From contig CAXXGY010000003.1 in assembly GCA_963667445.2 (NCBI GenBank), positions 7,183 to 71,182 of the forward strand: a DNA stretch of 64,000 nt, written 5' to 3'. The notes beneath the pieces are model-generated. The model was not told the DNA's origin. It ran no database searches and saw only the letters and a program-made list of their open reading frames with translations. Origin of the DNA: Dehalococcoidia bacterium. Its GTDB lineage: Bacteria > Chloroflexota > Dehalococcoidia > Lucifugimonadales > CATOSD01. Position numbers and translations under genes: made by a program. Positions within the stretch are counted from its first letter, which is position 1. Every line of letters starts with the position of its first letter. Of this stretch, positions 2 through 52,016 are shown piece by piece.

Positions 2-568
2 AGCTGCGTCGGCCAGCACCTTGCCGGGGAAGGAGAGGGGACGCTCCCACTCCGTCTCGCGCTCCAGCTTGAAGGTCATGGGCGTGCGGTCCATCAGCCC
101 TTCGCGGTCGAATTCGCTCACCATCTCGGCGATGATGTTGTCGAACGGGCCGAGCGCGATTTCGCCTTCGTGCTTGCCTATGACCTTGCCGCGCGGGTCT
201 ATGAACATGAGCGTGGGCCACGCGCGAACGGCGTAGGTCTGCCAGATTACGAAGTCGGAGTCGTTGGCGACCGGGTGCTCTATCTCGTAGCGCAGGATGG
301 CCTTGCGCACGTTCTCGGTGTCCTTCTCGGCGGTGAACTTGGCGGAGTGGACGCCCACCACGACCAGCTCGTTCCGGTACTTCTCTTCCAGTTTCCGCAA
401 CTGCGGAAATACGTGCATACAGTTGACTCAACAGTATGTCCAGAAGTCCAGGATGACTATCTTTCCGCGCAGGTCCTCAAGCGACAGGGGCCGCTCGGTG
501 TTCAGCCAGTCCATCCCCTTCGGGAAGTCGGGGGCGTTCACTGTGCCCGCGTAGCTCTGTGTCCTCAT
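2..568 (-). CDS. Thioredoxin-like redoxin domain protein (NHLRC2-type CC[IV]NC family). The C-terminus lies beyond the window edge. In-frame TGA at 428-430 is proposed to encode selenocysteine
   Basis: ATG at 566-568 with an AGGA-type RBS about 10 nt upstream. The frame reads [138 protein letters not shown]. No further stop occurs down to position 2. The pattern is a classic thioredoxin-fold/redoxin sequence. Confidence 0.65.
392..409 (-). promoter_or_regulatory. SECIS-like stem-loop 3' of the in-frame UGA
   Basis: The coding-strand RNA is UUUCCGCAGUUGCGGAAA, a perfect 6-8 bp stem with GU at the apex. It begins 18 nt downstream of the UGA at 428-430. Confidence 0.5.
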
Positions 569-609: not shown

Positions 610-1272
610 CTACAGGCCAACCGGCCACTGCTCGCGCGAGTAGGCCATGGACCAAAACATGTGCTCGTAGCGCGAACTGGCCAGGAACGCCTCGCGCATG
701 GCCGCTCTTACGGCGGGGCCGCCCTCGGCGCCGAACCGGTCCACCAGCTCGCGCCAGGCCGCCGTGCTCTCCTCAAGGATACCAGAGGAGTAGGCCTCGA
801 CCCAATGGCCATAGACGGGATGGGGCGACGGCTGGAGCTGCTGGCCTATCTCGTGGTAGCTCCAGGGGCAGGGGAGTATGGCCGCGGCTGCCTCGCCTAC
901 GCCGCCCATGGCGGCGGCGGTGAGCATGTGGTTGACGTAGGCGAGGTTGGTGGGCGACTGGTCCGCGGCCTCGGCCTCCTCCTCGGTCACACCCAGCAGC
1001 TCGAACATGCGGGAGTGCAGGGGACGCTCCACGGGCGTGGTGACGCGCCGCGCGAGCTGGCGGATGGCCTCGGTGTCCGGGGCCTTGGACAGCGCGATAG
1101 AGACCACCCTGCCGAACCCCTCCATGTAGTGGTAGTCCTGGATCACGTAGTACCGGAAGCTCTCGACGGGCAGGGTGCCTCTCTGTATCTCCAGCAGGAA
1201 GGGGTGCTCCATGATGTCGCCCCAGATGGAAGCGGCCTCCTGCCGCAGCTCGGATGAGAAACTGGTGGCCAT
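610..1272 (-). CDS. tenA: Thiaminase II / aminopyrimidine aminohydrolase (TenA family)
   Basis: 220 aa. [49 protein letters not shown] is the canonical TenA N-terminal pattern. Confidence 0.85.
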
Positions 1273-1447: not shown

Positions 1448-1524
1448 TGGCGTCCCTGGCAGGATTCGAACCCGCGACCCGCTGCTTAGAAGGCAGCCGC
1501 TCTGTCCAACTGAGCTACAGGGAC
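1448..1524 (-). tRNA. tRNA-Arg (anticodon TCT)
   Basis: The reverse complement GTCCCTGTAGCTCAGTTGGACAGAGCGGCTGCCTTCTAAGCAGCGGGTCGCGGGTTCGAATCCTGCCAGGGACGCCA folds as a cloverleaf. The anticodon loop is CTTCTAA, the T-loop is TTCGAAT, and CCA is encoded. Confidence 0.9.
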
Positions 1525-1642: not shown

Positions 1643-2134
1643 CTACGCCCGCCTCGACGTGCTGACGCGATAGACCGAGAGCCCGCCGGCCCATAGCCGC
1701 CTTACGCGGATGATTTCCACGCCGTCCAGCTCGGCCAGGGTGGTGAAGTGGCGTTGCAGCGCGTTGCCGATGGGCCGGCTCAGAAGGCCGACTCCGACCA
1801 TGGCGGCGATGGCGACCGGCAGCCGGACGATGCGGCGGCCGCGCGCCAGGATCGCCCTGGCGACGAGGCTGCCCAGCAGCGCGGCGGTGGCGATGTTGGT
1901 GCCGCAGTGCGGCGAGATAGCGAGCTCCTCGCGGCCGGCCTTGAGCGCGGCGAGCGCCTGCCGCGAGGCGGCCTGGACCTCTTCGAGTGAGGCCCGGCCG
2001 AAGATGAGGAACCCGCCGGGCGTGGAGTAGCCGCCCAGTGGGGTAGGGGAGCCGGCCCGGAGGAGCGTGGTGACGGTGGCGTGCTCCAGGGCGTGGTTTC
2101 GTCGGACGCTGTCCAGAATGTTCGATGCCAACAC
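1643..2134 (-). CDS. Hypothetical membrane-associated protein with HALEH and SPHCGTN motifs (possible metal site)
   Basis: Long ORF with protein-like composition and two hydrophobic segments. GAGGAGG RBS lies just upstream of GTG 2132-2134 / TTG 2129-2131. The ORF-track ATG at 2200 is probably too far upstream. Confidence 0.55.
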   Translation of the reverse strand: MLASNILDSVRRNHALEHATVTTLLRAGSPTPLGGYSTPGGFLIFGRASLEEVQAASRQALAALKAGREELAISPHCGTNIATAALLGSLVARAILARGRRIVRLPVAIAAMVGVGLLSRPIGNALQRHFTTLAELDGVEIIRVRRLWAGGLSVYRVSTSRRA

Positions 2135-2608
2135 TTCCTCCTCGCGCTCGGTAGGCGACGGCGGTCGTTTTGACGGCGCGCACCGCTTATCATACCCCAC
2201 CGGCGACCGGCCCGCCTAATCGCGGCGTCCGTGGCGCCTGCGGCGCTTGCATCGCCCGCCGTCGGACGTCGTGGGACCATGCGGGCGTCGAGCGGGGTAG
2301 GGGAGAGGTCGCCGGGTCGCGCCCGTCGCTGGGTCACACGCGACCCGGACCATCACTCGAAGCGGCCCCTCCGGGCCTCCATTGGCGGCAGCCTGGAGTA
2401 GGCCGCCGCGGTCATTCTAGGGCTTCATACGCTGTACATTATTAACTTACACGCTAAAACAACGTGTCATTTATAATTGTTAGCTACGGCATCGCGCTGT
2501 CCGGGCCGAGAACCGATGCCTGGGCCACCCGCGGGGCCGGTGACCTCTGGGCTAGCCAGACAAACTCTGACAGTCTTAGAATTGCGTCAGAAATGTTTTG
2601 ACTAGGCA

Positions 2609-3088: not shown

Positions 3089-3544
3089 CTAGCGGCGGCT
3101 GCCGATGGCCTCCCGCGCCTCCTGCTCGCGGTAGCGGTCGATGATGGCGCGGCGCTTGTCGTGGCGCCGGCGTCCCCTCGCCAGGGCCAGCTCCACCTTG
3201 GCCAGGTGCCGCTTCAGGTAGATGCGCAGCGGCACCAGCGTGAACCCCTTTTCGGACACGTCTCTGCTCAGCCGCCGGATCTGGTCCTTGTGCAGCAGCA
3301 GCTTGCGCGTGCGCATCGGTTCGTGGTTGGCGGAGTTGCCCGCGTCGTAGGGCGAGATGTGGAGGTTGTGCAGCCAGAGCTCGCCGCCTTCCGGCCGGGC
3401 GTAGGCGTCGCCGATGTTGGCGCGGTTGGCGCGCAAGGACTTGATCTCGGTGCCGGTCAGCACGATGCCCGCCTCGACCGTGTCGAGGATGTCGTAGTCG
3501 CGCCGTGCCCTTCTGTTGGTGGTTATCGTCCTGTACTGGCTCAT
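3089..3544 (-). CDS. smpB: SsrA-binding protein SmpB
   Basis: 151 aa. NRRARRDYDILDTVEAGIVLTGTEIKSLR ... LLLHKDQIRRL is the canonical SmpB sequence. Confidence 0.92.
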   Translation of the reverse strand: MSQYRTITTNRRARRDYDILDTVEAGIVLTGTEIKSLRANRANIGDAYARPEGGELWLHNLHISPYDAGNSANHEPMRTRKLLLHKDQIRRLSRDVSEKGFTLVPLRIYLKRHLAKVELALARGRRRHDKRRAIIDRYREQEAREAIGSRR

Positions 3545-3560: not shown

Positions 3561-4868
3561 CTACTCGCCCCGTTCCTCCAGGATGGATTCCATGACCTCT
3601 CTCGCCTTCTCCAGCTGCGTGGCCTCCGCGGTCTGGCGGTCCCTGGACGTGACCTCGAAGTCCGGCGTGATGCCCTGATTCTCGATCAGGAGACCTTCCG
3701 GCGTGTACCAGCGCGCGAACGTTATTATGAGGCCTCCGCCGTTGCTGAGGCGGCGCAGTATGTTTACGCTGCCCTTGCCATAGGTAGTCGCTCCCACTAT
3801 CTGCGCCCTTCCGTGGTCCTGGAGCGCCCCGGCCAGAATCTCGGTTGCGCTGGCGCTGAATTCGTTCGTGAGGATGACCAGCGGAATCTCCGCGGCTATA
3901 CCGCCAGGCTGCACGTGGAAGTTGGTGCGCTTGCCGCTGGAGTCTATCTCGTAGGTTACCAGCGCGCCATCGGGGAGCCGGTTGGAGTCCAGGAACAGGT
4001 TGACCACGTCGATTACGGAGCTGAGCAGGCCGCCGGGATTGTCCCGCAAGTCGAGTATGACGCCCTTAGCGCCGCTGGACATAACTTGGAGCAGCATGGC
4101 GCCGAGGTCGTCGGACGTGTCCGCGAAGAACTCCGTGACCCTGATGTGGGCTATCCTGTCGCCCGGCTCGCTGCGGAGCAGCACGCTTTCCAGGGGAATG
4201 ATGCCCCTGATTATCTCGATGGCGACGGGGTCGATGGCGCCCAGGTGGCGCACCAGGATGGTGACCTTGGTGCCGCGCTGGCCCCTGATCTTGTTCACCG
4301 CGCCCATCAGGCTCATGCCCTCGACGCTGACCCCGTCGATCTCCAGGATGATGTCGCCGGGCCGGACGCCCGCGGCCTCTGCGGGGCTGCCCGCTATGGG
4401 GGCGACCACGACCAGGTTGCCGTCCAGCCTCATCGACACGCTCGCGCCGATGCCCTCGAACTCGCCTTGAAGGTCCTGGCTCTGAATGTCGAACTCTTCG
4501 GGCGCGACGTAGTGGGTGTGGGGGTCGCCCAGGGTTTCGATAACCCCCCGGATGGCCTCCTCGGTCGCCTCGGCGGGGTCCAGGTTCTCACGGTCGATGT
4601 GCTCTCGCGCGAGTAGTGCCCAGGCTTCCCAGACGGCCAGCAGCTCCTCGGGCACCTCGGAAGGCGCGTTCAATGGCTCGTCAAGCTGTACGACCTCCGG
4701 GGCGGTCGGCTGGTCGCTCCCGGAGGTCGGGGGCGCAGTAGGGGAGAGCGCCGGCTCGGGAGTGGCCGTAGCATCGCCGCCGCACGCCACGAGGATGGCC
4801 AACGCCCAGGCGACGGCGACTGCGGCCGCCCAACGGAGCCCTTGCGGTCTGTGGTTCAAGTCATTCAC
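3561..4868 (-). CDS. ctpA: Carboxy-terminal processing peptidase, family S41, lipoprotein-type signal
   Basis: 435 aa. Signal with LVAC lipobox, PDZ segment (GSPAEAAGVRPGDIILEIDG), and S41 core (DLRDNPGG ... TYGKGSV). Confidence 0.88.
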   Translation of the reverse strand: MNDLNHRPQGLRWAAAVAVAWALAILVACGGDATATPEPALSPTAPPTSGSDQPTAPEVVQLDEPLNAPSEVPEELLAVWEAWALLAREHIDRENLDPAEATEEAIRGVIETLGDPHTHYVAPEEFDIQSQDLQGEFEGIGASVSMRLDGNLVVVAPIAGSPAEAAGVRPGDIILEIDGVSVEGMSLMGAVNKIRGQRGTKVTILVRHLGAIDPVAIEIIRGIIPLESVLLRSEPGDRIAHIRVTEFFADTSDDLGAMLLQVMSSGAKGVILDLRDNPGGLLSSVIDVVNLFLDSNRLPDGALVTYEIDSSGKRTNFHVQPGGIAAEIPLVILTNEFSASATEILAGALQDHGRAQIVGATTYGKGSVNILRRLSNGGGLIITFARWYTPEGLLIENQGITPDFEVTSRDRQTAEATQLEKAREVMESILEERGE

Positions 4869-6321: not shown

Positions 6322-7650
6322 CTACTGGCGGCGCAGGGTCGGCAGAAACAGCAGCCCGAACACCGCCAGCATCACGAGGACGGCCCCGTTCGCACCGAGC
6401 GCGAAGGCGATGGAAGTCGAAGAGGCGAGCGCGCCTATCTGCAGGCTTCCAAGCGGCCCCGTGCCTGTCGCCACAACCCACGCACCCGCCGCGCGGCCCC
6501 TCAGCTCGGACGGCACGATGGTCAGCATCATGCTCTGCGAGTACACGTCCAGCAGCGACGCCATGCCGCACACCACGACTATGGCGCCCAGCGCGAGCCA
6601 GAAGTTGCCGATAAACGCCAGCAGCACCACGCCGAGGCCGAACACGAGAATGGTGGCCATGTAGCTCAGACCCCGGCGGCTCTGTACTCCTATGGCGGCC
6701 AACGCCACAACCGCGAGAACTCCTCCCAGCGAACGCGCGGCGCTCATGTAGCCCAGCTCCTGGGCGCCGACGCCCAGCACGTCCCGCGCGAGGCTGGGAT
6801 ACAGTGAGAAGTGGGAGAACCCCGCGAATTCTATGATCATGCTTGTGGTCGCGAGCGTCAGCAGCAGCCGGTTGCGCCGCAGCTCCGTGCCGAGGCGGGC
6901 CACGTTGCCCACCACCTCGCCAAGCACGCCGGCGAGTCCGGCTGCCCTCGTGTGGTTGGGCCTGCCGACGCTGGCATCGGCGTCCTCGGCGCGATGCACG
7001 CCGCGGGTGAATGCGAGTACACCCGCCGTTGCAAGGTAGGTTGAGGCCATTGTGAAGTAGGCGTAGTCCGCGCCAAGGCGCTCCAGCACGATTCCCAGCA
7101 GAAACGAGCCAACGAAGCCGCCGCCCCTGGTTCCGATGTTCAGGAAGGCGAGGCCGTTCAGCAGATTCGGAAGGCCCACGACGTCCGAAACATAGCTCTG
7201 TTGCAGCGTCATCTTCAGCGGCGGCATCGAGCCGCCGACCGCCGCCAGGACGAACAGGTGCCACGGCTCGAGCAGCTCGAAGTGGTACAGTGCGCCCGTG
7301 ACGGCCGCCGTGGCCGCGAGCGGGCCGTTTACCAGGATCAACACCGCCCGGCGGTCCACGATGTCCGCCAGCGCGCCGGCGACCGCGCCGAAGAGGAAGG
7401 CCGGGGCCATTCGTATGCCGAGCACGGCGCCGACCATAAACGGCGAGTCGGTCAGCTCCAGCATGAGCCACCCGACAACGAGGTGCTCGCCCAGGAAACC
7501 GACGCCGTCGGAAACGCCCGCCATCGTGAGCAGCCGCATGTCGCGGTAGACCAGCGCGGGCGCGCGGACTATTCGAAAGCGGGAGAGATTCTGAGGGAGG
7601 GTCATCTGTGGAGGTAGGGTCCAACTATCGGGCACGGCCAAAATGGTCAC
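6322..7650 (-). CDS. MFS transporter
   Basis: 442 aa with about 12 hydrophobic segments and the ALADIVDRR loop motif. It is a paralogue of the 46387-47709 gene. Confidence 0.8.
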   Translation of the reverse strand: MTILAVPDSWTLPPQMTLPQNLSRFRIVRAPALVYRDMRLLTMAGVSDGVGFLGEHLVVGWLMLELTDSPFMVGAVLGIRMAPAFLFGAVAGALADIVDRRAVLILVNGPLAATAAVTGALYHFELLEPWHLFVLAAVGGSMPPLKMTLQQSYVSDVVGLPNLLNGLAFLNIGTRGGGFVGSFLLGIVLERLGADYAYFTMASTYLATAGVLAFTRGVHRAEDADASVGRPNHTRAAGLAGVLGEVVGNVARLGTELRRNRLLLTLATTSMIIEFAGFSHFSLYPSLARDVLGVGAQELGYMSAARSLGGVLAVVALAAIGVQSRRGLSYMATILVFGLGVVLLAFIGNFWLALGAIVVVCGMASLLDVYSQSMMLTIVPSELRGRAAGAWVVATGTGPLGSLQIGALASSTSIAFALGANGAVLVMLAVFGLLFLPTLRRQ

Positions 7651-38639: not shown

Positions 38640-40103
38640 CTACGCCCACGCCGCCAGCCCGTCGTTGCGCACCAGGTTCATGCGCGGCAGCAGTATGCCG
38701 GTCGCCTTGCCGCCGCCGTCCCCGAATTGTAGCGCCAGCCCCGGCGGCTCCGGCGCGCCGGTATCCAGCCGGAAGAACCCGGGGTCGTTCGCGTCCGGCT
38801 GGTACAGCCGCACCCCCTCGCGCCATGCGCCACGCCGGGAGCGCAGCTCCAGTCCCCCGTCCCTCTCGGTTATCTGGATGCGCCCCACGCCCCGGATGAT
38901 CCGGTAGCTGGTCAGGAAACCCGCGGGCGGCTCGTACACGCCCACCGCCGCGGCAGCCGCTTCCGCCGATATAGGCGCACCGCTGGTGTCCGGGTCCGGC
39001 GCGTTCAGCACCGACTGGATTACCTTCGAGAAGATGGCGTCAGACCGGTCGAAGCTGATGTTCAGATGCGTCAGCACGGCCAGATTCTCGGACGGGAACA
39101 CGTCGATGTGCGTGTTCCACCCGCCGGAGATTCCGCCCCCGTGGCCGAAACTGCGCCTGCCGAACCGCTCCACGCGCATGAGCGTGAGACCCAGACTCAG
39201 CAGCCGCTCGTCCGGGCACCACTGCGGCGACGTCATCTCGTCGAACGTTTCGGGGCGAACGATACCCTTGCTCTTCGCCAGCAGCGCCGAGGCGTACCGC
39301 GCCATGTCCGGAATCGTGGACTGTACCGCGCCCGCCGCCCGCGTCGCCACGTACACGTAGTCGCCGCGTATGTTGTGCCCGTCCACGCTGGCCTTGTCCG
39401 GCGCGTCCACCCCCAGGATCGACATCGCGTCCAGGTCGTCGTGGTCCGGCGCGTGGTGATACCCCGTCGTCAGGTCCGCGCGCTGCTGGTCCCAGCAGTC
39501 GCTGTTCGACATTCCAAGCGGCCCGAACACCCGCCGCTCCAGCACCTCCTCGATGCGCCGCCCCTCCGTCCTGGCGATGATCTCGCCCAGCAGGCAGAAG
39601 GCGTGGTTCGCGTAGGCCCACTTCGTATCCACCGGAACCTCGATGTCGATGCCGTCCGGGTACATCCGGTTCACCGGCGTCGGCGTCGCGCTGTCCGACC
39701 ACAGCTTGCCCAGGGCGTTGCGGTAGTCCCCCATCGTCGGCGCTTCGCCGATGCCGTTCGTGTGCGTCATCAGGTGGCGCACCCGCAGCGTCTCACCCGG
39801 CCCATTGAACCGGATGTCGGGCAGCCGGTCCACCACCCGCTCGTCCAGGCTCAGCCTGCCCTCGTCCACCAGCGCCATGGCGCACAGCCCCACCATCGTC
39901 TTCGTGATAGAGCCGATGCGCTGCCGCAGCTCCGGCGCCTGCCGCCTGCCGGACTCGATGTCCGCGTACCCGAAGCCCTGCGAATAGACCAGCGCGTCCC
40001 CGCACACGACGCCTATCGACATGCCCGGCACGTGGTACTCGTCCACCAGCGCCGCCGCCGTCGCCCGAACGCGGTCGATGTCCGCCGAAGTAAATGTCGC
40101 CAT
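38640..40103 (-). CDS. Serine hydrolase, beta-lactamase/transpeptidase-like family
   Basis: 487 aa. SITK nucleophile motif (IGSITKTMVG) about 70 residues from the N-terminus, and YANHAF. Confidence 0.8.
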   Translation of the reverse strand: MATFTSADIDRVRATAAALVDEYHVPGMSIGVVCGDALVYSQGFGYADIESGRRQAPELRQRIGSITKTMVGLCAMALVDEGRLSLDERVVDRLPDIRFNGPGETLRVRHLMTHTNGIGEAPTMGDYRNALGKLWSDSATPTPVNRMYPDGIDIEVPVDTKWAYANHAFCLLGEIIARTEGRRIEEVLERRVFGPLGMSNSDCWDQQRADLTTGYHHAPDHDDLDAMSILGVDAPDKASVDGHNIRGDYVYVATRAAGAVQSTIPDMARYASALLAKSKGIVRPETFDEMTSPQWCPDERLLSLGLTLMRVERFGRRSFGHGGGISGGWNTHIDVFPSENLAVLTHLNISFDRSDAIFSKVIQSVLNAPDPDTSGAPISAEAAAAAVGVYEPPAGFLTSYRIIRGVGRIQITERDGGLELRSRRGAWREGVRLYQPDANDPGFFRLDTGAPEPPGLALQFGDGGGKATGILLPRMNLVRNDGLAAWA

Positions 40104-40141
40104 AGCCAGATGCTCCCGATGCCCTCAGGCGCTACCGAATT

Positions 40142-40205
40142 GTCCCTTCCCCCTCGCAGGGGGAAGGTTAGAATCTGCCCCGTACTCGATACGGGGATGG
40201 GGGTG
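40142..40205 (+). repeat. REP-A composite (hairpin + CTGCCCCGTACTCGATACGGGG module + tail)
   Basis: GTCCCTTCCCCCTCGCAGGGGGAAGGTTAGAATCTGCCCCGTACTCGATACGGGGATGGGGGTG. Confidence 0.9.
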
Positions 40206-40238
40206 CGTCCCTTTGCGTTTTGGTTAGCTGCCCCGCAG

Positions 40239-40661
40239 CTACGCTGGCTCGAACATCGGCAGCGAAATCTCGCCCTCCCCCTGGTCCTCCCAGCGCAGCT
40301 TCACTCGCATCCCGCACTGCACGTCGTTCACCGGGTCTTCGACCCCCACGATGTTCGTCATGATGCGGAACCCCTCGTCCAGGTCCACGTAGGCCACCGC
40401 GTAGGCGCCCAGGTCCTTGAACGCGGGGTGCCGGCTCTGCATCACCACGCTGTACGTGTACACCGTGCCCTCGCCCTTGGACACCCTCCATTCGTTGTTG
40501 TCCGAGCCGCACTCCGTGCAGTGCCGGCGCGGGAAGAAGATTACCGTCGGGCAGTCGTTGCAGAACTGGTAGGTCAACTCATGGCTCTTGGTCGCCTCCC
40601 AGAACGGCTCCGTGTCCGGCTCCGGAAAGCGGGGCTGCGGCCTCAAAGGTGTGCTGGTCAT
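40239..40661 (-). CDS. Zn-ribbon/OB-fold protein (DUF35 family), thiolase partner
   Basis: 140 aa. CNDCPTVIFFPRRHCTECGS rubredoxin-like knuckle followed by an OB-fold-like segment. Confidence 0.8.
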   Translation of the reverse strand: MTSTPLRPQPRFPEPDTEPFWEATKSHELTYQFCNDCPTVIFFPRRHCTECGSDNNEWRVSKGEGTVYTYSVVMQSRHPAFKDLGAYAVAYVDLDEGFRIMTNIVGVEDPVNDVQCGMRVKLRWEDQGEGEISLPMFEPA

Positions 40662-40686
40662 TATCGTCGCTCCTCGTACTCAGATT

Positions 40687-40726
40687 GTCCCTTCTCCCTC
40701 GCAGGGGGAAGGTTAGGATGGGGGTG
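40687..40726 (+). repeat. REP-A element
   Basis: GTCCCTTCTCCCTCGCAGGGGGAAGGTTAGGATGGGGGTG. Confidence 0.9.
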
Positions 40727-40734
40727 CGCCCCCT

Positions 40735-41928
40735 CTAGTCCGCCGCCAGTATCGTCACGCCCGTCGCGTGCCGCGAACCCAACTGCCCCCCGTTGCCCAC
40801 CGCCACCGCCAGCTTGGGGTCGTCCACCTGCGAAGTGGACTCGCCGCGTAGCTGCCGCGTCGCCTCCAGCAGCAGGAAGATGCCCCGCTCGCCCGGATGG
40901 TTCGAGGACAGCCCGCCGCCGTCCGTGTTCATCGCCGGCTTGCCCGGCGCGTCGAACGCCAGGTGCAGGTCCTCCACGTATGCGCCACCCTCCCCCTTCG
41001 TGCAGAAGCCCAGGTCCTCGATCATGCACATCACCGTGATCGAGAACGAGTCGTAGGCCATCAGCACGTCGATCTCGGCCGGCGTAACCCCCGCCTCGCC
41101 GAACGCCACCGGCGCCGCCTGCGCGCCCGCGCTCACGGTGATGTCGCCACCGTTCTCGGTGTACTTGGTCGCCTCGCCCGTGCCGATTATCCACACCGGC
41201 TTCTTGCGCGTGTCCCGCACCACGTCAGGGGACGCTATCACCACCGCGCCGCCGCCGTCGGACACCATGCAGCACTCCAGCAGGTGCAGCGGATGGGCTA
41301 TCATCCGCGAGTCGAGCACGTCCTGCACCGTTATCTCGCGCACGCCCACGAACTCAAGGTCTGTCATGGCCTTCACCGCCTCCGGGTTGCGCATCGCGTG
41401 CTTGCGCGTCGTCACCGAGATGGCCGCGAACTGCTCGTCCGTCGTGCCGTACTGGTACATGTGCCGCTGCTTGACCATGGCGTAGTTGCTGATGAGCGTC
41501 AGCCCCCACGGGTCTTCCATGTTGTTGAGCGGGTTCGCCGGCCCCTGCCCCGTCGCGCCCGCGGTGCCGATGGCGCGGCGGTCTGCGTGCGCGGTGGAGC
41601 CGTAGGTGAGCAGCGCCACCTTGCACTTGCCCGCGGCGATCATCTCCCGCGCGTGGTTGGCCTGGAACTCGTAGGACGAGCCGCCCACCGCGGTGTTGTC
41701 GATGACGTTGGGCTTCAGTCCCAGGTACTCGGAGATTCCGAGGCCGCCGATACCCTGGTGGCTGCCGTTGTCGTAGATGGCGTCCACGTCCTTCCAAGAC
41801 AGGCCCGCGTCCTCCAGCGCCTTCGCGGCGGACGACGCCTTTATCTGGAGCGCGCTGGTCCCCCCGCCCGTAACCCTGAGGGGGTACTCGTGAATGCCGA
41901 CGATGGCTGCGTCTCTGCTTCCGGCCAT
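40735..41928 (-). CDS. Thiolase-like (SCP-x/lipid-transfer type) protein
   Basis: 397 aa. Thiolase-fold pattern with a C-terminal GNGGQLG. It pairs with the DUF35 gene as usual. Confidence 0.8.
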   Translation of the reverse strand: MAGSRDAAIVGIHEYPLRVTGGGTSALQIKASSAAKALEDAGLSWKDVDAIYDNGSHQGIGGLGISEYLGLKPNVIDNTAVGGSSYEFQANHAREMIAAGKCKVALLTYGSTAHADRRAIGTAGATGQGPANPLNNMEDPWGLTLISNYAMVKQRHMYQYGTTDEQFAAISVTTRKHAMRNPEAVKAMTDLEFVGVREITVQDVLDSRMIAHPLHLLECCMVSDGGGAVVIASPDVVRDTRKKPVWIIGTGEATKYTENGGDITVSAGAQAAPVAFGEAGVTPAEIDVLMAYDSFSITVMCMIEDLGFCTKGEGGAYVEDLHLAFDAPGKPAMNTDGGGLSSNHPGERGIFLLLEATRQLRGESTSQVDDPKLAVAVGNGGQLGSRHATGVTILAAD

Positions 41929-42016
41929 AAGCTGCTCCTTTCGAGCTCAAATGGGAAATCTCAAATGCGCCGAAAACGTAGCACACGCCAGCACCCTAGT
42001 CAACGCGCTACCTAAA

Positions 42017-42056
42017 GTCCCTTCCCCCTTGATAGGGGAAGGTTAGGATGGGGGTG
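42017..42056 (+). repeat. REP-A element
   Basis: GTCCCTTCCCCCTTGATAGGGGAAGGTTAGGATGGGGGTG. Confidence 0.9.
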
Positions 42057-42083
42057 CCGTTTCAGGCACGAGCCTTCCTAATT

Positions 42084-42147
42084 GTCCCTTCCCCCTCGCA
42101 GGGGGAAGAGCCTGCCCTGAGCTTGCCGAAGGGATAGGATGGGGGTG
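42084..42147 (+). repeat. REP-A composite
   Basis: GTCCCTTCCCCCTCGCAGGGGGAAGAGCCTGCCCTGAGCTTGCCGAAGGGATAGGATGGGGGTG. Confidence 0.9.
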
Positions 42148-42176
42148 CCGCCATAGCCATGTCGCCGCCACCCATG

Positions 42177-44003
42177 TCAAACCGATTTCAGGTTTTCAAA
42201 CCAACCTTCCACGAAGTCCGGCATTGTCCCTAGCTCTTCCAGTTGCTCGAGCGCTTCCGCAACATGGCCGTGAGGTATTTCGTCAAAGATTTGCGGAGTG
42301 GGGACAAGGGCCTTGTTCAAGTCGTTCGGTTCGAACTTGTTCAAAGCGTCGCCGTATCTTCTCATCGACAGTGATGTGATCTCCCGCCCTGTTGCAGAAT
42401 GGAGATACAAGAAGAGGTGGTCAATGTACTTCTCTCCCCAGATATTGGGCTGAAACCCGTGAAAGCAAGTCAGGTTCAAGACATTCGCCTTGTTTCGCAC
42501 TACCTTGTAGCCCCCTCTTGAAAACACTCCCAAGAGTATCGGCGACGGACTTCGTTTCTCCATCTTGTACCAGGGTTTGCGATTTCTGGTAATGAAGCCC
42601 CTGTTGAAGCCCTTCAGTTCTCCATATCGGATGTACTCACCGGCGTTGTCCGATACTTGCCCCTCTACGTTCAAAAGCAGTACAGGCTCGTCGTGCTTCA
42701 CGAGTTCGTCGTAGTCTCTGGCAGTGAACACAGGCGCGTTGACCTGTGCGCTCTTGGTGATGCTGTGGACGACCTCCGATGCCGTTATCCCCAAGTCCCT
42801 CACTCTGGACGGCTTTAGCGCAAAGAACTTGTTCGCCCCGGTCGCTATGCCCCTGCTGAATCGCCCATAGTGCGACAATGGGACGGTTCTGGCTTTGTCG
42901 ACGGCTATTGGGCTGTCGTCGAAGTAAAGCAGCCAGTTGTCTTCTGGAATAAGTTGAACTTGAGGAACTTCGGCAGTCGGTTCACTGCCCAAAATCGCCC
43001 CTAACGATTCGATAGATTGAGCCTTGAAAAATCGAACGCGCGAAAATCTTCGCGCTGAGTCGTATAGAACAATGCCAACAGAAGTCGTTGCGTCAGGGAA
43101 AATATCTCGCTCACAGTCGAGGCTGATAATCGCTGCCAGATGATCGTCGGCAATCAAGTTCTGTTTAACCACTTTCCCATAGCCGGTGTTCAGGAATTCG
43201 AGCGGCATGATGTACGCCAACCTGCCGCGCGGTTGCAACTCGCACAAAGACTTGAGCAAGAAAGCGGAAGCAGTGTTCGTGTAGCCCGGCAATCGCACGT
43301 TAAGATTCGCTTCAAACTCTTGGAATACTTCCTTTCTGTTCAGAAACTTCTGAAACCTCATATACGGAGGATTGCAGACGATGTTCCCGTACTTGCGCCC
43401 CCAGGAAAGCAAGTAGTCTTCCTGACGGACTGAAATCGCGGATACGTCGGGGGATGCTCCACGTTTCCAGTAGTCCAAAATCTTGGAATCTACCTCGCTC
43501 CCCGTGAAGGCATCTCGCGCTTCCACCGGCGCGGCATCCAGGAACGCCCCCAGTCCAAAGCCGGGGTCATGTATGCCGTCAACGCCTGACCGCAGGACCC
43601 AACCAACCATGAAGTTCGCCACCTGTGGGGGTGTGAAGAACTGCCCCATAGCCTTGCGATGGGCATCCCCCGCCGAATCCAGGTAAGCCGTTACATTAGG
43701 CTCCATCCACAATCTCCTGATAGAAGACATCTGCGTCAAGATAACCCTTGCCGCGAAGCTCAATTCCCTGAAAGTATCGACGGATGCCCCCTCTATCATC
43801 CTGTAAAGCTCGGGACGTTTATCCATTAGGACGTTTGAGTAGGGCGCTCGCAGAATGAGTTGCTGAAGTCTCAAGCACTCGCTTTCTGCGTTACGAGTTC
43901 TTGTATCCATGAACTCGGCGTATTTCAACGATCGGAAGCTGCTTGACCGAACTTCTATGGCCGCAACAGCATTGCTCACTAGCCCACGCCCGGCGCGGCG
44001 CAC
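42177..44003 (-). CDS. N6-adenine DNA methyltransferase (gamma-class, Eco57I/TaqI-like) with C-terminal target-recognition domain; no cognate nuclease adjacent
   Basis: GQFFTPPQVANFMV, DPGFGLGAFL (motif I) and NIVCNPPYMRF (motif IV). GC is clearly lower than in the flanks. The probable start is ATG 43908-43910 (MDTRTRN). Confidence 0.8.
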   Translation of the reverse strand: MRRAGRGLVSNAVAAIEVRSSSFRSLKYAEFMDTRTRNAESECLRLQQLILRAPYSNVLMDKRPELYRMIEGASVDTFRELSFAARVILTQMSSIRRLWMEPNVTAYLDSAGDAHRKAMGQFFTPPQVANFMVGWVLRSGVDGIHDPGFGLGAFLDAAPVEARDAFTGSEVDSKILDYWKRGASPDVSAISVRQEDYLLSWGRKYGNIVCNPPYMRFQKFLNRKEVFQEFEANLNVRLPGYTNTASAFLLKSLCELQPRGRLAYIMPLEFLNTGYGKVVKQNLIADDHLAAIISLDCERDIFPDATTSVGIVLYDSARRFSRVRFFKAQSIESLGAILGSEPTAEVPQVQLIPEDNWLLYFDDSPIAVDKARTVPLSHYGRFSRGIATGANKFFALKPSRVRDLGITASEVVHSITKSAQVNAPVFTARDYDELVKHDEPVLLLNVEGQVSDNAGEYIRYGELKGFNRGFITRNRKPWYKMEKRSPSPILLGVFSRGGYKVVRNKANVLNLTCFHGFQPNIWGEKYIDHLFLYLHSATGREITSLSMRRYGDALNKFEPNDLNKALVPTPQIFDEIPHGHVAEALEQLEELGTMPDFVEGWFENLKSV

Positions 44004-47844: not shown

Positions 47845-48660
47845 CTACGCCGTAACCAGCGGATACTTGGACACGTCCACGCCCGCCTCGGTCAGCATGT
47901 CCAGGTCGTACAGGATCCGCCCGGTGCACTCCCTCGGTTCCTGGACGCAGATGAGCACCGCAGCGTCGCCCATGCTGATGCCGTCCTCCATCGCGCCGAT
48001 GTAGTTGCGCGTGTCGCCCCGGAACCACCGCTGCCCCTCCGACGCGATGCTCTTGTTCGGCGACAGCGCGTTCACCGCGATGCCGTCGTCCCACAACTCC
48101 TGGGCCAGCCCCTGCGTGAACCGCTCCAAGTGCGCCTTGCCGGAGCCGTAGGCGATTCCCCCGCCGCCGCCGGACTCGTAGGGGCCGGGGCCCGGGAAGA
48201 TGGCGCCCACCGACGATATGTTGATGATGTGTCCGCCGCCCTGCTGCCGCATATGCGGAATCGCGTACTTGCAGCCCAGGAACGGCCCCTTGATGTTCAC
48301 GCGGTACAGCAGGTCCCAGTGTCGCACCTGCATATCCTCCACCTTGCCGGGAATGAGGATGGCCGCGTTGTTCACCAGGATGTCCACCCGTCCCAGCCGC
48401 TCCACGGTGCCGTCCAGCAGCGCCTTGACCTGCTCGTCGTCGCTCACGTCGCAGGTGATGCCGATGGCGCTGCCGCCCTCGTCCTGTATGCGCGTGACCG
48501 TGGTGTTGACGCTGCCGGAGATGCGGAAGTCGCCCTCGTTCTCGGTGCGCGCCGACACCACCACCTGCGCGCCCTCCCTGGCGAGCACCAGGGCGATGTC
48601 CCGCCCGATGCCGCGGCTCGCGCCGGTTACCACCGCAACCTTGCCGTCCAGTTGGCCCAT
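47845..48660 (-). CDS. Short-chain dehydrogenase/reductase
   Basis: 271 aa from ATG 48658-48660. [14 protein letters not shown] and the YGSGK active-site context. Confidence 0.85.
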   Translation of the reverse strand: MGQLDGKVAVVTGASRGIGRDIALVLAREGAQVVVSARTENEGDFRISGSVNTTVTRIQDEGGSAIGITCDVSDDEQVKALLDGTVERLGRVDILVNNAAILIPGKVEDMQVRHWDLLYRVNIKGPFLGCKYAIPHMRQQGGGHIINISSVGAIFPGPGPYESGGGGGIAYGSGKAHLERFTQGLAQELWDDGIAVNALSPNKSIASEGQRWFRGDTRNYIGAMEDGISMGDAAVLICVQEPRECTGRILYDLDMLTEAGVDVSKYPLVTA

Positions 48661-48789
48661 AATTCGCTCCTTTGGGTGAGTATGAGTATGGCCAAGAGTA
48701 TGTGGCCACTTCGCACGTTGCGTCAAGTGCGGGGCGCTCGCCGGCGCGTAGGGGGAAGGGACTTTGAAAAGGCCCTGGAGCGAGGAAAT

Positions 48790-49050
48790 CGCTAAAAGTG
48801 CCCCAAACTGCACCGTTTTGCTCATTTCGTAGCTGGGAGAGGTGACACTTGGGGCGGTTGGGTGTCCCAGTCTGTGCGATTTTATGGGGCAGTTTGGTGA
48901 AAATGGCGCAGACTGGGGCGGCGGCGGGCGGGACCGGACGGGGCCCCGCATCAGGTGCGAGGCAGGCGGTCCGTGGTGGGCTGTAGGTTGTGTAGGTGCG
49001 TTATGAAGAGACGGTAGCACGGATGTGCGGGCGAGGTCAATAGCCATGGC
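48790..49050. repeat. Copy 1 of a dispersed repeat of about 230-260 bp (copy 2 at 62130-62392)
   Basis: Shared anchors TAGCTGGGAG (48830 / 62190) and GTGCGTYATG...TAGCACGGATGTGCG...TCAA (48997-49040 / 62334-62377), with similar spacing (185 vs 162 bp). Confidence 0.5.
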
Positions 49051-49064
49051 GAAGGAAGGGCGTT

Positions 49065-49153
49065 CACCCCCATCCCCGTATCGGGTACGGGGCAGGCTCT
49101 AACCCGTTCGGCAAGCTCAGGGCAGGCTCTTCCCCCTGCGAGGGGGAAGGGAC
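49065..49153 (-). repeat. REP-A composite with all modules, reverse orientation
   Basis: CACCCCCATCCCCGTATCGGGTACGGGGCAGGCTCTAACCCGTTCGGCAAGCTCAGGGCAGGCTCTTCCCCCTGCGAGGGGGAAGGGAC. Confidence 0.9.
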
Positions 49154-49279
49154 TTTGAAGCGGTGGGACGAAACAGGTATGGATTAGGCCACCTACAGGG
49201 CAGTTGCGGGGGGCCGCATGGCAGTGGTGGTGACTCGATGGCGCGGTTTTGGGGCGGAATTTCGGGGGTCGGGATATTC

Positions 49280-49414
49280 GTGTGGTATCATTGCGCCGAC
49301 GAACCTTGCCCAGGATGGCGGGCGTGGACATTCGGTGGGGACCTTCGCTATCTTCATAGGGCCGGGTGTCGTGCTGGCGTAGGCTCGCTTGCGGGGGCAA
49401 CGCGGAATGAGTAG
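49280..49414 (+). CDS. Small Cys/His-rich ORF (44 aa), paralogue of 50306-50476
   Basis: (V)WYHCADEPCPGWRAWTFGGDLRYLHRAGCRAGVGSLAGATRNE. 21 of the first 27 codons are conserved with the second copy, and 7 differences are purely synonymous. It ends 18 nt before the next gene. Confidence 0.45.
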   Translation: MWYHCADEPCPGWRAWTFGGDLRYLHRAGCRAGVGSLAGATRNE

Positions 49415-49432
49415 CGGAGAGGCTTTTCTCTG

Positions 49433-49807
49433 ATGCAGACCGAACGAAAAAAGCTCCACAGGCACGACGAATCGGAGCGCGACTCGCTTCCCAGGCCCGA
49501 AAACCCGATGGGGGTTGACGAGGCGGTTGAGATGTTCGTGGAGAAGGTTAGCCGCATCGAGTACGTGGACGAGATCCGGTGCCTTAAACGCGGCCATCTC
49601 CATGAAGTCTGGACCATATTCGCTGCGCCGCGGGGGCAGTATGAGCTAGAACTCCCGATAATCAGGATTGAAAACGAGTTGCTTGAGAGATTGGACGAAC
49701 CGCTGCTGGACTTCAGAGCCGTTAACACAAACGAGGTGAGTTACATCGACCCGTCGGCCATAGCACAAGGCAGCGCGCTGCTTTGGAAGAAGCAAGATGC
49801 CGAGTGA
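49433..49807 (+). CDS. Hypothetical protein, putative antitoxin partner of the HEPN-like gene
   Basis: 124 aa. Its 3' end overlaps the next ORF by 11 nt. I recognise no catalytic nucleotidyltransferase motif. Confidence 0.5.
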   Translation: MQTERKKLHRHDESERDSLPRPENPMGVDEAVEMFVEKVSRIEYVDEIRCLKRGHLHEVWTIFAAPRGQYELELPIIRIENELLERLDEPLLDFRAVNTNEVSYIDPSAIAQGSALLWKKQDAE

Positions 49808-50177
49808 AGCGCAACACCTTGCCAAAGCTCTACACAACGAACGTTTCTGTCTCGCAGTTGTTGACGGACTGGAGCCGTCGTTCGGGCAATTCTATGATTG
49901 GGCCATCACCGGAATGTTCTACTCAGCGTTGCACTACATCGACGCGTACTTAGACCGTAGTCTGGCAACACATCCGGAGACTCATGCCGACCGAAGGAGA
50001 ATAATCGCGCGGATTCGCCAGTTGCGTCCGATACGAGAGCAGTACACCCTTCTGAGCCGTCGTAGTCAGTCGGCGCGGTACGGACCGGTGAGCTTTGCCG
50101 GTTCCGACGTCCAAAACCTGCGTGACAACTACTTCATCCCGCTAAGGAATCGCCTGCGCGCCCTGCTGGCCGTCTAA
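49797..50177 (+). CDS. HEPN-like four-helix protein (putative toxin)
   Basis: 126 aa, all-helical pattern. RSLATH fits the Rx4H HEPN motif, and a second conserved R...ARY segment is present. Confidence 0.45.
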   Translation: MPSEAQHLAKALHNERFCLAVVDGLEPSFGQFYDWAITGMFYSALHYIDAYLDRSLATHPETHADRRRIIARIRQLRPIREQYTLLSRRSQSARYGPVSFAGSDVQNLRDNYFIPLRNRLRALLAV

Positions 50178-50305
50178 CGGCCATTCCTGCCGAGCTGCCC
50201 ACCCCACCCGCACACCATCCCCCTCCCGCGCCTTGCCCTCGTCTCGCCATGCCGTTACCGTAAAGCGGTCTGCGTATTTCTCCGGCTCACCCGTATGTCA
50301 CACCC

Positions 50306-50476
50306 ATGTGGTACCATTGCGCCGATAAACCTTGTCCCGGAGGGCAGATGTGGACATTCGGCAGAGACCTTCGCTACTTTCATCGGGTCGTGCCCGGGCT
50401 GGCGCTGGCGCAGGTCGGCGCCCGAACGACGCGACGCCCGCCACTGACAAGGACGCGTCCGAGCGTGAAGAAATGA
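50306..50476 (+). CDS. Small Cys/His-rich ORF (56 aa), paralogue of 49280-49414
   Basis: MWYHCADKPCPGGQMWTFGRDLRYFHRVVPGLALAQVGARTTRRPPLTRTRPSVKK. Its TGA stop overlaps the ATG of the next gene (ATGA). Confidence 0.45.
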   Translation: MWYHCADKPCPGGQMWTFGRDLRYFHRVVPGLALAQVGARTTRRPPLTRTRPSVKK

Positions 50477-50673
50477 TGTCCGAACTCCTGGCTGCCTTAT
50501 CCTCGCCTGAGACGCGCAACGAAGCGTGGATTGCGATGGCTCGCCTGCCAATCGAGGACAGACGTCGAATTATGCGCCACGCTGTCATAGAGGTGGACGA
50601 AGAAGAGACGGCGTTGTGGGACACGCTGCCTTGGCCCGACGAGGATACCTACGTGCGAGGGGAATCGTCATGA
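50473..50673 (+). CDS. Putative antitoxin of the MazF-like toxin
   Basis: 66 aa, acidic C-terminus. The stop overlaps the MazF-like start (ATGA at 50670-50673). Confidence 0.55.
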   Translation: MMSELLAALSSPETRNEAWIAMARLPIEDRRRIMRHAVIEVDEEETALWDTLPWPDEDTYVRGESS

Positions 50674-51038
50674 GCGTGGAAATGCCCACGCGCGGCGAAT
50701 TGTGGATAGTGCGTCTGCCGCGCGGCATAGGCGTAGAGGCGCAGCGCGACCGACCGTGCGTCGTAATCAGTTCGACCGACTACGACTCTCATCCAATTCG
50801 AGTCATCATGCCGCTATCCACTTGGAGACCTGAATTCGAAGGACGGGCTAACAAACTACATATTGGAGCAGGCGCACAGAGCGGTCTTCACAACGACTCT
50901 GCGGCAGACTTTCTTCAGATACGCAGCGTTTCCACCGGGCGCTTTCTGGAGCGCATTGGCGCGATAGACTCCCGCCTCGTAGATGGCATTGTTTCTGGCG
51001 TCGCTCTAGCCATAGGCTACGTGCCCGCACAGTATTGA
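50670..51038 (+). CDS. mazF: MazF/PemK family endoribonuclease toxin
   Basis: 122 aa. RGELWIVRLPRGIGVEAQRDRPCVVISSTDY ... VIMPLST follows the MazF/PemK N-terminal consensus. Confidence 0.75.
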   Translation: MSVEMPTRGELWIVRLPRGIGVEAQRDRPCVVISSTDYDSHPIRVIMPLSTWRPEFEGRANKLHIGAGAQSGLHNDSAADFLQIRSVSTGRFLERIGAIDSRLVDGIVSGVALAIGYVPAQY

Positions 51039-51071
51039 GCGGGACTATTCAGCCCCCACGCCCCCTCCCCT

Positions 51072-51212
51072 GCCCTCGTTCTCGGTGCGCGCCGACACCA
51101 CCACCTGCGCGCCCTCCCTGGCGAACACCAGGGCGATGTCCCGCCCGATGCCCCGGCTTGCGCCCGTAACCACCGCAACCTTGCCGTCCAGTTGGCCTAT
51201 AATTCGCTCCTT
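51072..51212 (-). pseudogene. Displaced 5' fragment (RBS + first 43 codons) of the SDR gene; right-hand direct repeat of the islet
   Basis: 135/141 identical to 48532-48672. The start codon is mutated from ATG to ATA, and the frame is not continued past codon 43. Confidence 0.85.
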
Positions 51213-51254
51213 GTCAACCACCTTCAACCATGAGGACCCCCACACTCCTGCGAC

Positions 51255-52016
51255 TCACCAGGGTAGATCGTCGTCGTCATCCCGACCAGCCTGAAACGTG
51301 AGGACACGCCTGTACTTCCTATAGCAATCTAAGCACACAGGCTTCGCCATCGTCGCCTTGTGCTCCTTGCCGCAAGTGTGACAGTGTTTTTCCTCGTAGT
51401 CTTTGTTCTCGTACCGCTTCCAACTTCGGAAGCAACGATTGCAGTAGGGTTGAAGTGGGTTGGCTGGCAGTTCGTTTCTGCAACGAACGCAGAAGGCAGC
51501 GGATGGCTTCTCAACTTTGGCTTGAGACCTGACATTCCGCCTGGGCACCGGGCTCTCGCGGTCACCTGCGGGCGCCGCAACCCTTGCCACCGTCACTCGT
51601 ATCTGTTCGCTATTGTCCACAAGCCTCTTTGCTTCTTCGAAGATCTTCCGGTAAAGGTCTTCGTCCTTGGATACGAGTACGCCCATCTCATCGTTGTTTT
51701 TCTCTGAGAACTCGTATAGGTTCATCGACGTCAGAAGCGCCTGCGCTTCGTTCAAATAGCACTTGGCGTGAAGATTCTGGCGAAAACTGGTCTTGATCTT
51801 GGGCAACTCTTCAAGCCATTTCATTTCTTCCGGCTGAAGTTCGCTCTTGCCGTAGATTACCCTGATGTCAACGGACGCCTTCTTATCCTCCAGCAGTTCC
51901 TTTAGACGACTGTTGACTTTGAGATACGGGCTAATGAGCCAGAGACGTTCCTCGGCATTCTTGATTATCTCTTCAAGATGATGTGAGATGCCTGTCGTGG
52001 TGTAGAAATCTGCCAT
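51255..52016 (-). CDS. Phospholipase D-family (single HKD) nuclease-like protein with a C-terminal double CxxC zinc-ribbon tail
   Basis: 253 aa. NLHAKCYLNE is the HxK(x)4N/D motif, followed by TSMNLYEFS. The tail is CVRCRN...CNRCF...CHTCG...CLDCY. GC is much lower than in the backbone. Confidence 0.7.
   Translation of the reverse strand: MADFYTTTGISHHLEEIIKNAEERLWLISPYLKVNSRLKELLEDKKASVDIRVIYGKSELQPEEMKWLEELPKIKTSFRQNLHAKCYLNEAQALLTSMNLYEFSEKNNDEMGVLVSKDEDLYRKIFEEAKRLVDNSEQIRVTVARVAAPAGDRESPVPRRNVRSQAKVEKPSAAFCVRCRNELPANPLQPYCNRCFRSWKRYENKDYEEKHCHTCGKEHKATMAKPVCLDCYRKYRRVLTFQAGRDDDDDLPW

Follow-up and report, generated by a model that had tools for sequence, protein, structure and literature searches.

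Why would a gene for a thioredoxin-like protein carry a stop codon exactly where a catalytic cysteine is expected? The question is raised by the first gene in a 64,000-nucleotide stretch of contig CAXXGY010000003.1 (hereafter the window; positions 7,183 to 71,182 of the contig), which belongs to the Dehalococcoidia bacterium assembly GCA_963667445.2. The gene lies on the minus strand, is cut by the left edge of the window inside a linker, and is interrupted by an in-frame TGA at its presumptive redox motif (Table 1). Based on comparative sequence analysis, we assign a probability of roughly 90% to the conclusion that UGA 430-428 is a selenocysteine (Sec) codon in a bacterial protein of the NHLRC2/SOQ1 type. 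A first-pass annotation of the window had proposed a selenoprotein at this site. Its interpretation now gains support from the conservation of the TGA, from the identity of the corresponding column in homologues, from purifying selection on both sides of the codon, and from a conserved and covarying hairpin that follows it.

Direct translation of the minus strand reproduces the long frame that had been claimed, which is open for 46 codons ahead of the TGA and for another 142 codons beyond it, up to the window edge. The resulting 189 residues match the Pfam family Thioredoxin_8 (PF13905; E = 2e-18), with additional matches to AhpC-TSA and Redoxin. Over all 189 residues, the solved structures that match are the lumenal region of Arabidopsis SOQ1 (7djj; E = 4e-53) and human NHLRC2 (6gc1; E = 9e-46), and a weaker match is found to DipZ of M. 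tuberculosis (2hyx; E = 1.5e-24). In the alignment to SOQ1, the UGA falls opposite the second Cys of the CC[IV]NC motif, which is the first Cys of CxxC; a mutant of SOQ1 in which this motif reads SSINS is represented by PDB entry 7djk. The motif in the window reads C-U-V-N-C (U denoting Sec), with the same position and neighbours as CC[IV]NC and with its second Cys encoded by TGA. It counts as a CC[IV]NC motif only if the UGA is read as Sec, a functional analogue of Cys.

The remainder of the protein can be described from its orthologues. Among these, L001-L009 (87-94% identity) carry an NHL propeller beyond the point that corresponds to the window edge (PF01436; E = 1e-27), and many propeller residues are more than 97% conserved among Sec-form genes. 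Full-length orthologues comprise 484-503 amino acids and stop directly after the propeller. They lack the beta-stranded C-terminal domain with a Cys pair that is part of the mammalian and plant architecture, and no signal peptide, membrane anchor or HAD domain is predicted in the thioredoxin-NHL (Trx-NHL) protein. Judging from these alignments, the predicted protein is a bacterial orthologue of NHLRC2 and SOQ1 that consists of a Trx-like domain and an NHL propeller, wherein C-U-[IV]-N-C replaces CC[IV]NC.

The TGA is not peculiar to this genome. A scan with one genome per species yielded 52 loci, and TGA occupies the column in 18 of them, 17 from Dehalococcoidia/Chloroflexota and one from Thermoanaerobaculia (Acidobacteriota), with 48-96% protein identity. 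The other 34 loci are more distant (Planctomycetota, Myxococcota, Acidobacteriota, Gammaproteobacteria, archaea and others) and have TGC or TGT. Thus, the proposal that homologues should show Cys at the UGA column holds for these 34 genome loci, as it does for SOQ1 and NHLRC2 (CCINC). A second scan, of metagenomes from soil, groundwater, freshwater and marine sources, used a DNA pattern that requires TGA and recovered the TGA form in at least 120 contigs. The frame was recorded as open on both sides of the TGA in all 80 metagenome contigs inspected. One of these (L140) was later excluded as a chance match to the DNA pattern and not a homologue, its alignment showing a frame that closes a few codons after the TGA, and it was dropped from subsequent counts. 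Among 91 complete Sec-form genes, which share 39-96% identity with orthologue L003 and range from 44 to 73% in G+C content, the TGA is the sole interruption of a frame of approximately 490-500 codons, 440-464 of which follow it.

Immediately downstream of the UGA, the RNA is predicted to form a short hairpin, UUUCCGCAGUUGCGGAAA (409-392), that begins 18 nucleotides after the codon. Its loop starts at +25 nucleotides and has G as the second base, and RNAfold assigns the isolated hairpin a free energy of about -8.7 kcal/mol. The first-pass annotation was correct in the placement of this hairpin and in noting a GU within its apical loop. However, it described an 8-base-pair stem closed by a two-nucleotide GU loop, which is sterically impossible; the actual structure has seven base pairs and an AGUU loop. 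The 2005 model of Zhang and Gladyshev for bacterial selenocysteine insertion sequence (SECIS) elements of the E. coli fdhF type reportedly places the apical loop approximately 16-37 nucleotides from the UGA, with G at the start of the loop. The loop distance and the G among the first two loop bases agree with the earlier claim that the hairpin stands where a bacterial SECIS would, and the claim is further backed by covariation and by frozen synonymous sites, as follows.

We scored 117 distinct Sec forms and 34 Cys forms for an uninterrupted stem of at least five base pairs whose loop begins 13-37 nucleotides after the codon. Such a hairpin is present in 97/117 Sec forms versus 11/34 Cys forms, and G is found among the first two loop bases in 94 of the 97 Sec-form hairpins versus 9 of the 11 Cys-form hairpins. 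The loop starts at +25 in 77 Sec forms, whereas the positions in Cys forms are scattered. When the seven stem positions seen in the window are examined, all are paired in 70 of the 117 Sec forms and six are paired in 15 more. The Cys forms pair only one to four of these positions, with a single case of six.

The coding sequence that overlaps the hairpin is constrained beyond the needs of the peptide. Among 85 distinct Sec forms that encode xPQLRx at this site, the same codons recur almost without change (CCG in 84/85, CAG in 85/85, TTG in 85/85 and CGG in 81/85), while Cys forms at this position encode Leu mostly by CTG and never have Gln. Over the first 13 codons behind the UGA, the synonymous difference between the window and L001-L009 amounts to 0.12, while the rest of the gene shows 0.30-0.53. 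Moreover, the outermost base pair (UA in 43 sequences, CG in 39 and UG in 13) switches between U-A, formed by Phe TTT and Lys AAA, and C-G, formed by Leu CTT and Lys AAG (Fisher p = 1e-6), such that a synonymous change 17 nucleotides away compensates for an amino acid change. Across 118 distinct sequences, 81.8% of cells are paired versus 75.3 +/- 0.6% in shuffles, and 72 cells are changed on both sides versus 20.5 expected; in neither case does any of 500 shuffles reach the observed value. Every slid control gives a lower score. Sec forms that encode other peptides at this location (LPELEA, FPDLAR, LPVLAG, VGELRR and others) form different hairpins in the same place. These comparisons argue that the hairpin is an RNA element overlapping the coding sequence, with the geometry of a bacterial SECIS.

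Several results weigh against assigning Sec to this codon. Considered as a single sequence, the 66-nucleotide region that includes the hairpin (370-435) folds no better than shuffled versions (z = 0.05), and no Rfam model matches the site at either gathering or permissive thresholds. Thus, one sequence does not demonstrate a hairpin beyond chance, whereas the comparison of many sequences clearly does. Approximately 20 of the 117 Sec forms do not have an uninterrupted hairpin and fold only with bulges. In the 91 Sec forms, C46, U47 and C50 are the only conserved Cys/Sec columns and no other Cys is conserved, but the metagenome pattern demanded W-T-Y-C-TGA-[IV]-N-C, and therefore the conservation of the flanking Cys residues in those data is partly by construction. 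In addition, neither human NHLRC2 (PMC6107167) nor SOQ1 (10.1101/2024.11.01.621559) has insulin-reductase activity, and these negative assays mean that general disulfide-reductase chemistry is not established for the family. Finally, neither the 64-kb window nor the orthologous loci of 12.5 kb yielded selA, selB, selD or tRNA-Sec. ARAGORN reports no tRNA-Sec in the window or in the loci scanned, and when E. coli SelA, SelB and SelD served as tblastn queries, the only genuine match in the window or any of the loci was a selD gene on contig L113. An apparent SelB match at the edge of the same contig proved to be EF-Tu.

The selD gene on this marine metagenome contig (L113:5622-6659, minus strand) is located 3.3 kb from a Sec-type Trx-NHL gene and has an in-frame TGA of its own at the catalytic position (SHCAG-TGA-AAKF). 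The organism represented by L113 must therefore decode Sec. We also observed that this selD adjoins Oxidored_molyb-like and nitrile hydratase genes, and that the order selD, Oxidored_molyb, nitrile hydratase recurs in L176-L185. The best 120 relatives of the L113 SelD protein (P0140-P0259) are 306-328 amino acids long and cover only 88-94% of the query. These entries look like Sec-type SelD proteins that were called without their N-terminal part, which would constitute a systematic miscall.

Could the UGA be bypassed by something other than Sec? Programmed readthrough by a near-cognate tRNA carrying Trp, Cys or Arg, with stimulation by the hairpin, would also produce a full-length protein. In other systems, readthrough of a leaky UGA can be promoted by a conserved hairpin a short distance downstream, and the missing Sec machinery in the window is compatible with such a mechanism. 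However, readthrough does not account for a UGA that coincides exactly with the catalytic Cys column of CxxC, which is the signature of Sec/Cys pairs, nor for a hairpin that, in 94 of the 117 Sec forms, obeys the bacterial SECIS rule for both distance and loop G. The Sec-type SelD encoded beside the gene on L113 likewise speaks against it. Furthermore, Dehalococcoidia are rich in selenoproteins: metagenome-assembled genomes of this class, with 46-49 selenoprotein genes each, figure in the top ten of bacteria ranked by selenoprotein gene number in the paper describing BSepDB (PMC13326102). One of the genomes listed there has a UUID-style isolate name of the same style as several carriers of the Trx-NHL gene. 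Given this evidence, we regard readthrough without Sec as improbable.

A different explanation is suggested by public gene calls, which present the locus as two products. One is a 46-amino-acid N-terminal fragment that begins at the ATG, and the other is a 446-amino-acid C-terminal fragment that begins at MHVFPQL and is named "YncE-like beta-propeller", "alkyl hydroperoxide reductase" or "thioredoxin-like, partial" in public protein sets. The 75-amino-acid fragment starting at TTG that the first-pass annotation expected automated callers to produce is not among these calls. If the calls were correct, a 46-residue peptide would be followed by an independent 446-residue protein initiated at ATG 418-416, and an ATG three codons after the TGA is indeed available in many forms. 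However, the division would cut the thioredoxin fold through its active site such that neither part is a domain, and strong purifying selection acts on the first 46 codons, in phase with the remainder of the gene. Nor is the Met conserved, since other forms read INCLH, INCHH, INCAH or INCQH, and in L026 the first Met after the TGA would leave a protein of only 186 amino acids. We therefore consider two separate genes very unlikely. The split annotation affects more than 100 contigs, and the active site is missing from each such record.

Two further explanations can be set aside by the manner in which the genes have been maintained. A pseudogene or an assembly error, in which a nonsense mutation or a miscalled base has altered a TGC or TGT codon, might be suspected because Cys codons in most of the distant homologues are one base from TGA and because public annotations split the locus, but it has almost no credibility given that the TGA recurs across 18 genomes, each representing a species, and across at least 120 metagenome contigs of independent origin, that none of the 91 complete genes has a second disruption, and that the ratio of nonsynonymous to synonymous substitution rates (dN/dS) between the window gene and eight orthologues lies at 0.04-0.11 in the part preceding the TGA and at 0.07-0.16 in the part following it. 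The 18 TGA genes from the genome scan are likewise full length apart from this single interruption. Accordingly, two of the doubts that accompanied the first-pass proposal are answered: close and distant orthologues keep the TGA with no further frame disruption and with dN/dS of 0.04-0.16 on both sides, and an error in sequencing would not recur in independent assemblies from many samples.

Reassignment of UGA to Trp, Gly or Cys as an ordinary sense codon, for which no SECIS would be needed, is known from some uncultivated bacteria, but can be given hardly any weight here because TGA terminates about 13 of the 39 likely genes in the window, 4 of the 18 TGA genes and 32 of the 91 Sec-form genes, because carriers span G+C contents of 44-73% and at least two phyla, and because a screen of the window revealed no further in-frame TGA flanked in both directions by coding-like sequence. 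Together, a conserved TGA, intact genes, low dN/dS and the continued use of TGA as a stop rule out pseudogenisation, sequencing error and reassignment of UGA. The search for other in-frame TGA codons with coding-like flanks gave no convincing case in the window or in the orthologous loci. As a separate observation, locus L017 carries three in-frame TGA codons on its plus strand (L017:1511, 2330, 2741) in near-identical contexts (GHEQPPVVPVCP*[MV]L[EQ]ALLSRGGI, with the TGA as asterisk) between long open stretches of one frame. One possibility is that these stretches are paralogues in tandem, each closed by its own TGA, but another explanation may apply.

If the UGA encodes Sec, the standard bacterial insertion pathway is the most likely mechanism and would yield a full-length cytoplasmic selenoprotein of approximately 496 amino acids. 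With UGA 430-428 in the ribosomal A site, the hairpin at 409-392 would be positioned at the mRNA entrance, where its binding by SelB-GTP-Sec-tRNA(Sec) could deliver Sec and thereby avoid termination. In the structure of NHLRC2, CCINC is located at the N-terminus of helix alpha-1, in a cleft that faces the propeller (PMC6107167). If it behaves as UxxC selenoproteins do elsewhere, Sec47 at the equivalent location would attack an oxidised substrate that may be bound by the NHL propeller. Cys50 would then resolve the adduct as a selenenylsulfide, and a cellular reductant would be expected to recycle it. Methionine sulfoxide is a lead for the substrate that comes from SOQ1, but the activity in that protein is assigned to a C-terminal domain that is absent here.

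The two forms of the protein may also differ in location. Several Cys-type homologues (P0001, P0052, P0077 and P0079) have N-termini that resemble signal peptides or the leaders of lipoproteins. In most Sec-type genes, the open frame ahead of the UGA spans only 45-60 codons, too few to accommodate either. Sec forms may be cytoplasmic, while many Cys forms may be exported.

The genes located upstream of the Trx-NHL gene in the window are included in Table 1. The nearest, a member of the TenA/THI-4 family, is encoded on the same strand and ends in TAG 41 nucleotides before the selenoprotein ATG. It may be co-transcribed with the selenoprotein gene, and we treat it as context and not as part of the element. 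Synteny with tRNA-Arg(TCT) is kept in most of the orthologous loci from Dehalococcoidia. No redox partner was found in the gene neighbourhood, in agreement with a previous report that bacterial homologues with Trx and NHL domains, which were already known and most of which also lack the C-terminal beta domain, have no conserved operon partners (PMC6107167). In two distant carriers, the gene immediately downstream of the Trx-NHL gene encodes an MFS transporter (L003:7498-8778 and L113:8574-9839, both on the minus strand), with convergent orientation in L003 and the same strand in L113. Elsewhere in the window, positions 40001-44000 and 48001-52000 have a G+C content of approximately 0.60, compared to 0.65-0.69 in the other regions, and these stretches may be acquired DNA.

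Table 1. Features of the selenoprotein candidate locus and of the genes upstream of it (window coordinates).
Feature	Position	Strand	Remarks
Selenoprotein gene (predicted), 5' part, 189 codons	1..568	-	Thioredoxin-like (Thioredoxin_8 / TlpA-DipZ-like) domain and linker to NHL propeller
Start codon ATG (MRTQSY...)	566..568	-	N-terminus common to orthologues L001-L009
Redox motif C46-U47-V48-N49-C50	419..433	-	From alignment to 7djj; equivalent to CC[IV]NC of NHLRC2 (C89-C93) and SOQ1
In-frame TGA, probably read as selenocysteine residue 47	428..430	-	First (attacking) position of CxxC
Spacer between UGA and hairpin, 18 nucleotides	410..427	-	Codons V-N-C-M-H-V; reduced synonymous divergence
SECIS-like hairpin, UUUCCGC/GCGGAAA, 7 base pairs, loop AGUU	392..409	-	Within codons F54-P-Q-L-R-K59
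TenA/THI-4 family gene	610..1272	-	Pfam TENA_THI-4, E = 8.5e-45; upstream neighbour
tRNA-Arg(TCT)	1448-1524	-	Upstream of gene
DUF6391 protein	1643-2200	-	Upstream of gene
SmpB	3089-3544	-	Upstream of gene
S41 (Ctp-type) peptidase with PDZ domain	3561-4868	-	Upstream of gene

Selenoproteins with a thioredoxin fold and a UxxC motif are well known, and it is reasonable to ask whether the present family has been recorded among them. Of the 119 prokaryotic selenoprotein families in Table 1 of a 2026 review, none is described as having an NHL propeller, as NHLRC2-like or with the motif C-U-[IV]-N-C (PMC13188914). Likewise, the strings CUINC, CUVNC and NCMH are absent from those parts of the GOS and Sargasso sequence supplements that were compared. 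No NCBIfam model specific to the Sec-type Trx-NHL family was found, and the NCBIfam model for ResA-like proteins with WAxxUGC (NF041054) gives scores of 25.6 and 22.3 bits, below its 300-bit cut-off. A full-text literature search for NHL or NHLRC2 in connection with selenocysteine returned nothing relevant. Thus, the NHLRC2-like family is not named in the catalogues compared, although BSepDB may file the gene under a generic Prx-like or redoxin label.

The value of this assignment would extend beyond the correction of an annotation. A Sec/Cys pair is an accepted sign that a cysteine is redox-catalytic, and here it would point to the catalytic residue of NHLRC2/SOQ1, a family with unsettled biochemistry. 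Human NHLRC2 is essential and is mutated in FINCA disease, but has no known biochemical activity, and its Trx-like domain has been suggested not to perform thiol-disulfide exchange (PMC6107167). For SOQ1, a recent proposal has electrons moving from its Trx-like domain to a domain at the C-terminus that acts as a methionine sulfoxide reductase (10.1101/2024.11.01.621559). That a bacterial orthologue places the costly residue Sec at exactly this position while lacking a C-terminal domain speaks for a catalytic role of the CC[IV]NC site itself. We tentatively propose, while judging the odds to be somewhat below even, that the Sec forms constitute a widespread and uncatalogued family (soil, groundwater and marine; Chloroflexota and Acidobacteriota) in which the exchange of Sec and Cys marks the second Cys of CC[IV]NC, C90 in the human protein, as the catalytic redox nucleophile. 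If this proposal is true, the disease protein NHLRC2 would be a substrate-specific reductase that works with its Trx and NHL domains only, and the bacterial Trx-NHL proteins would offer a small and tractable model for finding the substrate.

The hairpin resembles the SECIS of the E. coli fdhF type in that it lies within the coding sequence a short way 3' of the UGA, in its loop distance and in the G, here as GU, at the start of the loop. It differs from that type in being a short, perfect stem of seven base pairs with a tetraloop, which starts 18 nucleotides after the UGA and has no bulged U. With catalogued selenoproteins of the Trx-fold UxxC type, the protein shares Sec at the attacking position, Cys homologues that greatly outnumber the Sec forms, and a SECIS hairpin located right behind the UGA. 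The comparators in the catalogue (PMC13188914) are the Prx-like thiol:disulfide oxidoreductase, the thiol-disulfide isomerase-like proteins, the Redoxin family with Prx-like 3, and the UGC-containing TlpA family. In the portions of the supplements compared, the Sargasso thiol-disulfide isomerase-like protein has the motif DWuTWC and not C-U-[IV]-N-C, and one displayed sequence of GOS Prx-like 3, or the Redoxin family, reads SYUGLC. DipZ has a Trx-like domain of the same subfamily as the bacterial protein, but is a membrane-bound, DsbD-like electron transporter with a Cys active site (SCINC; PMC6107167) and no NHL propeller. The closest resemblance is to NHLRC2 and SOQ1, with which the active-site string FWTYC-x-[IV]NCMHV is identical except for Sec. 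In the bacterial protein, the second Cys of the motif is predicted to be selenocysteine, and the chain would end at approximately residue 496, without a C-terminal beta domain, HAD domain, membrane anchor or signal peptide.

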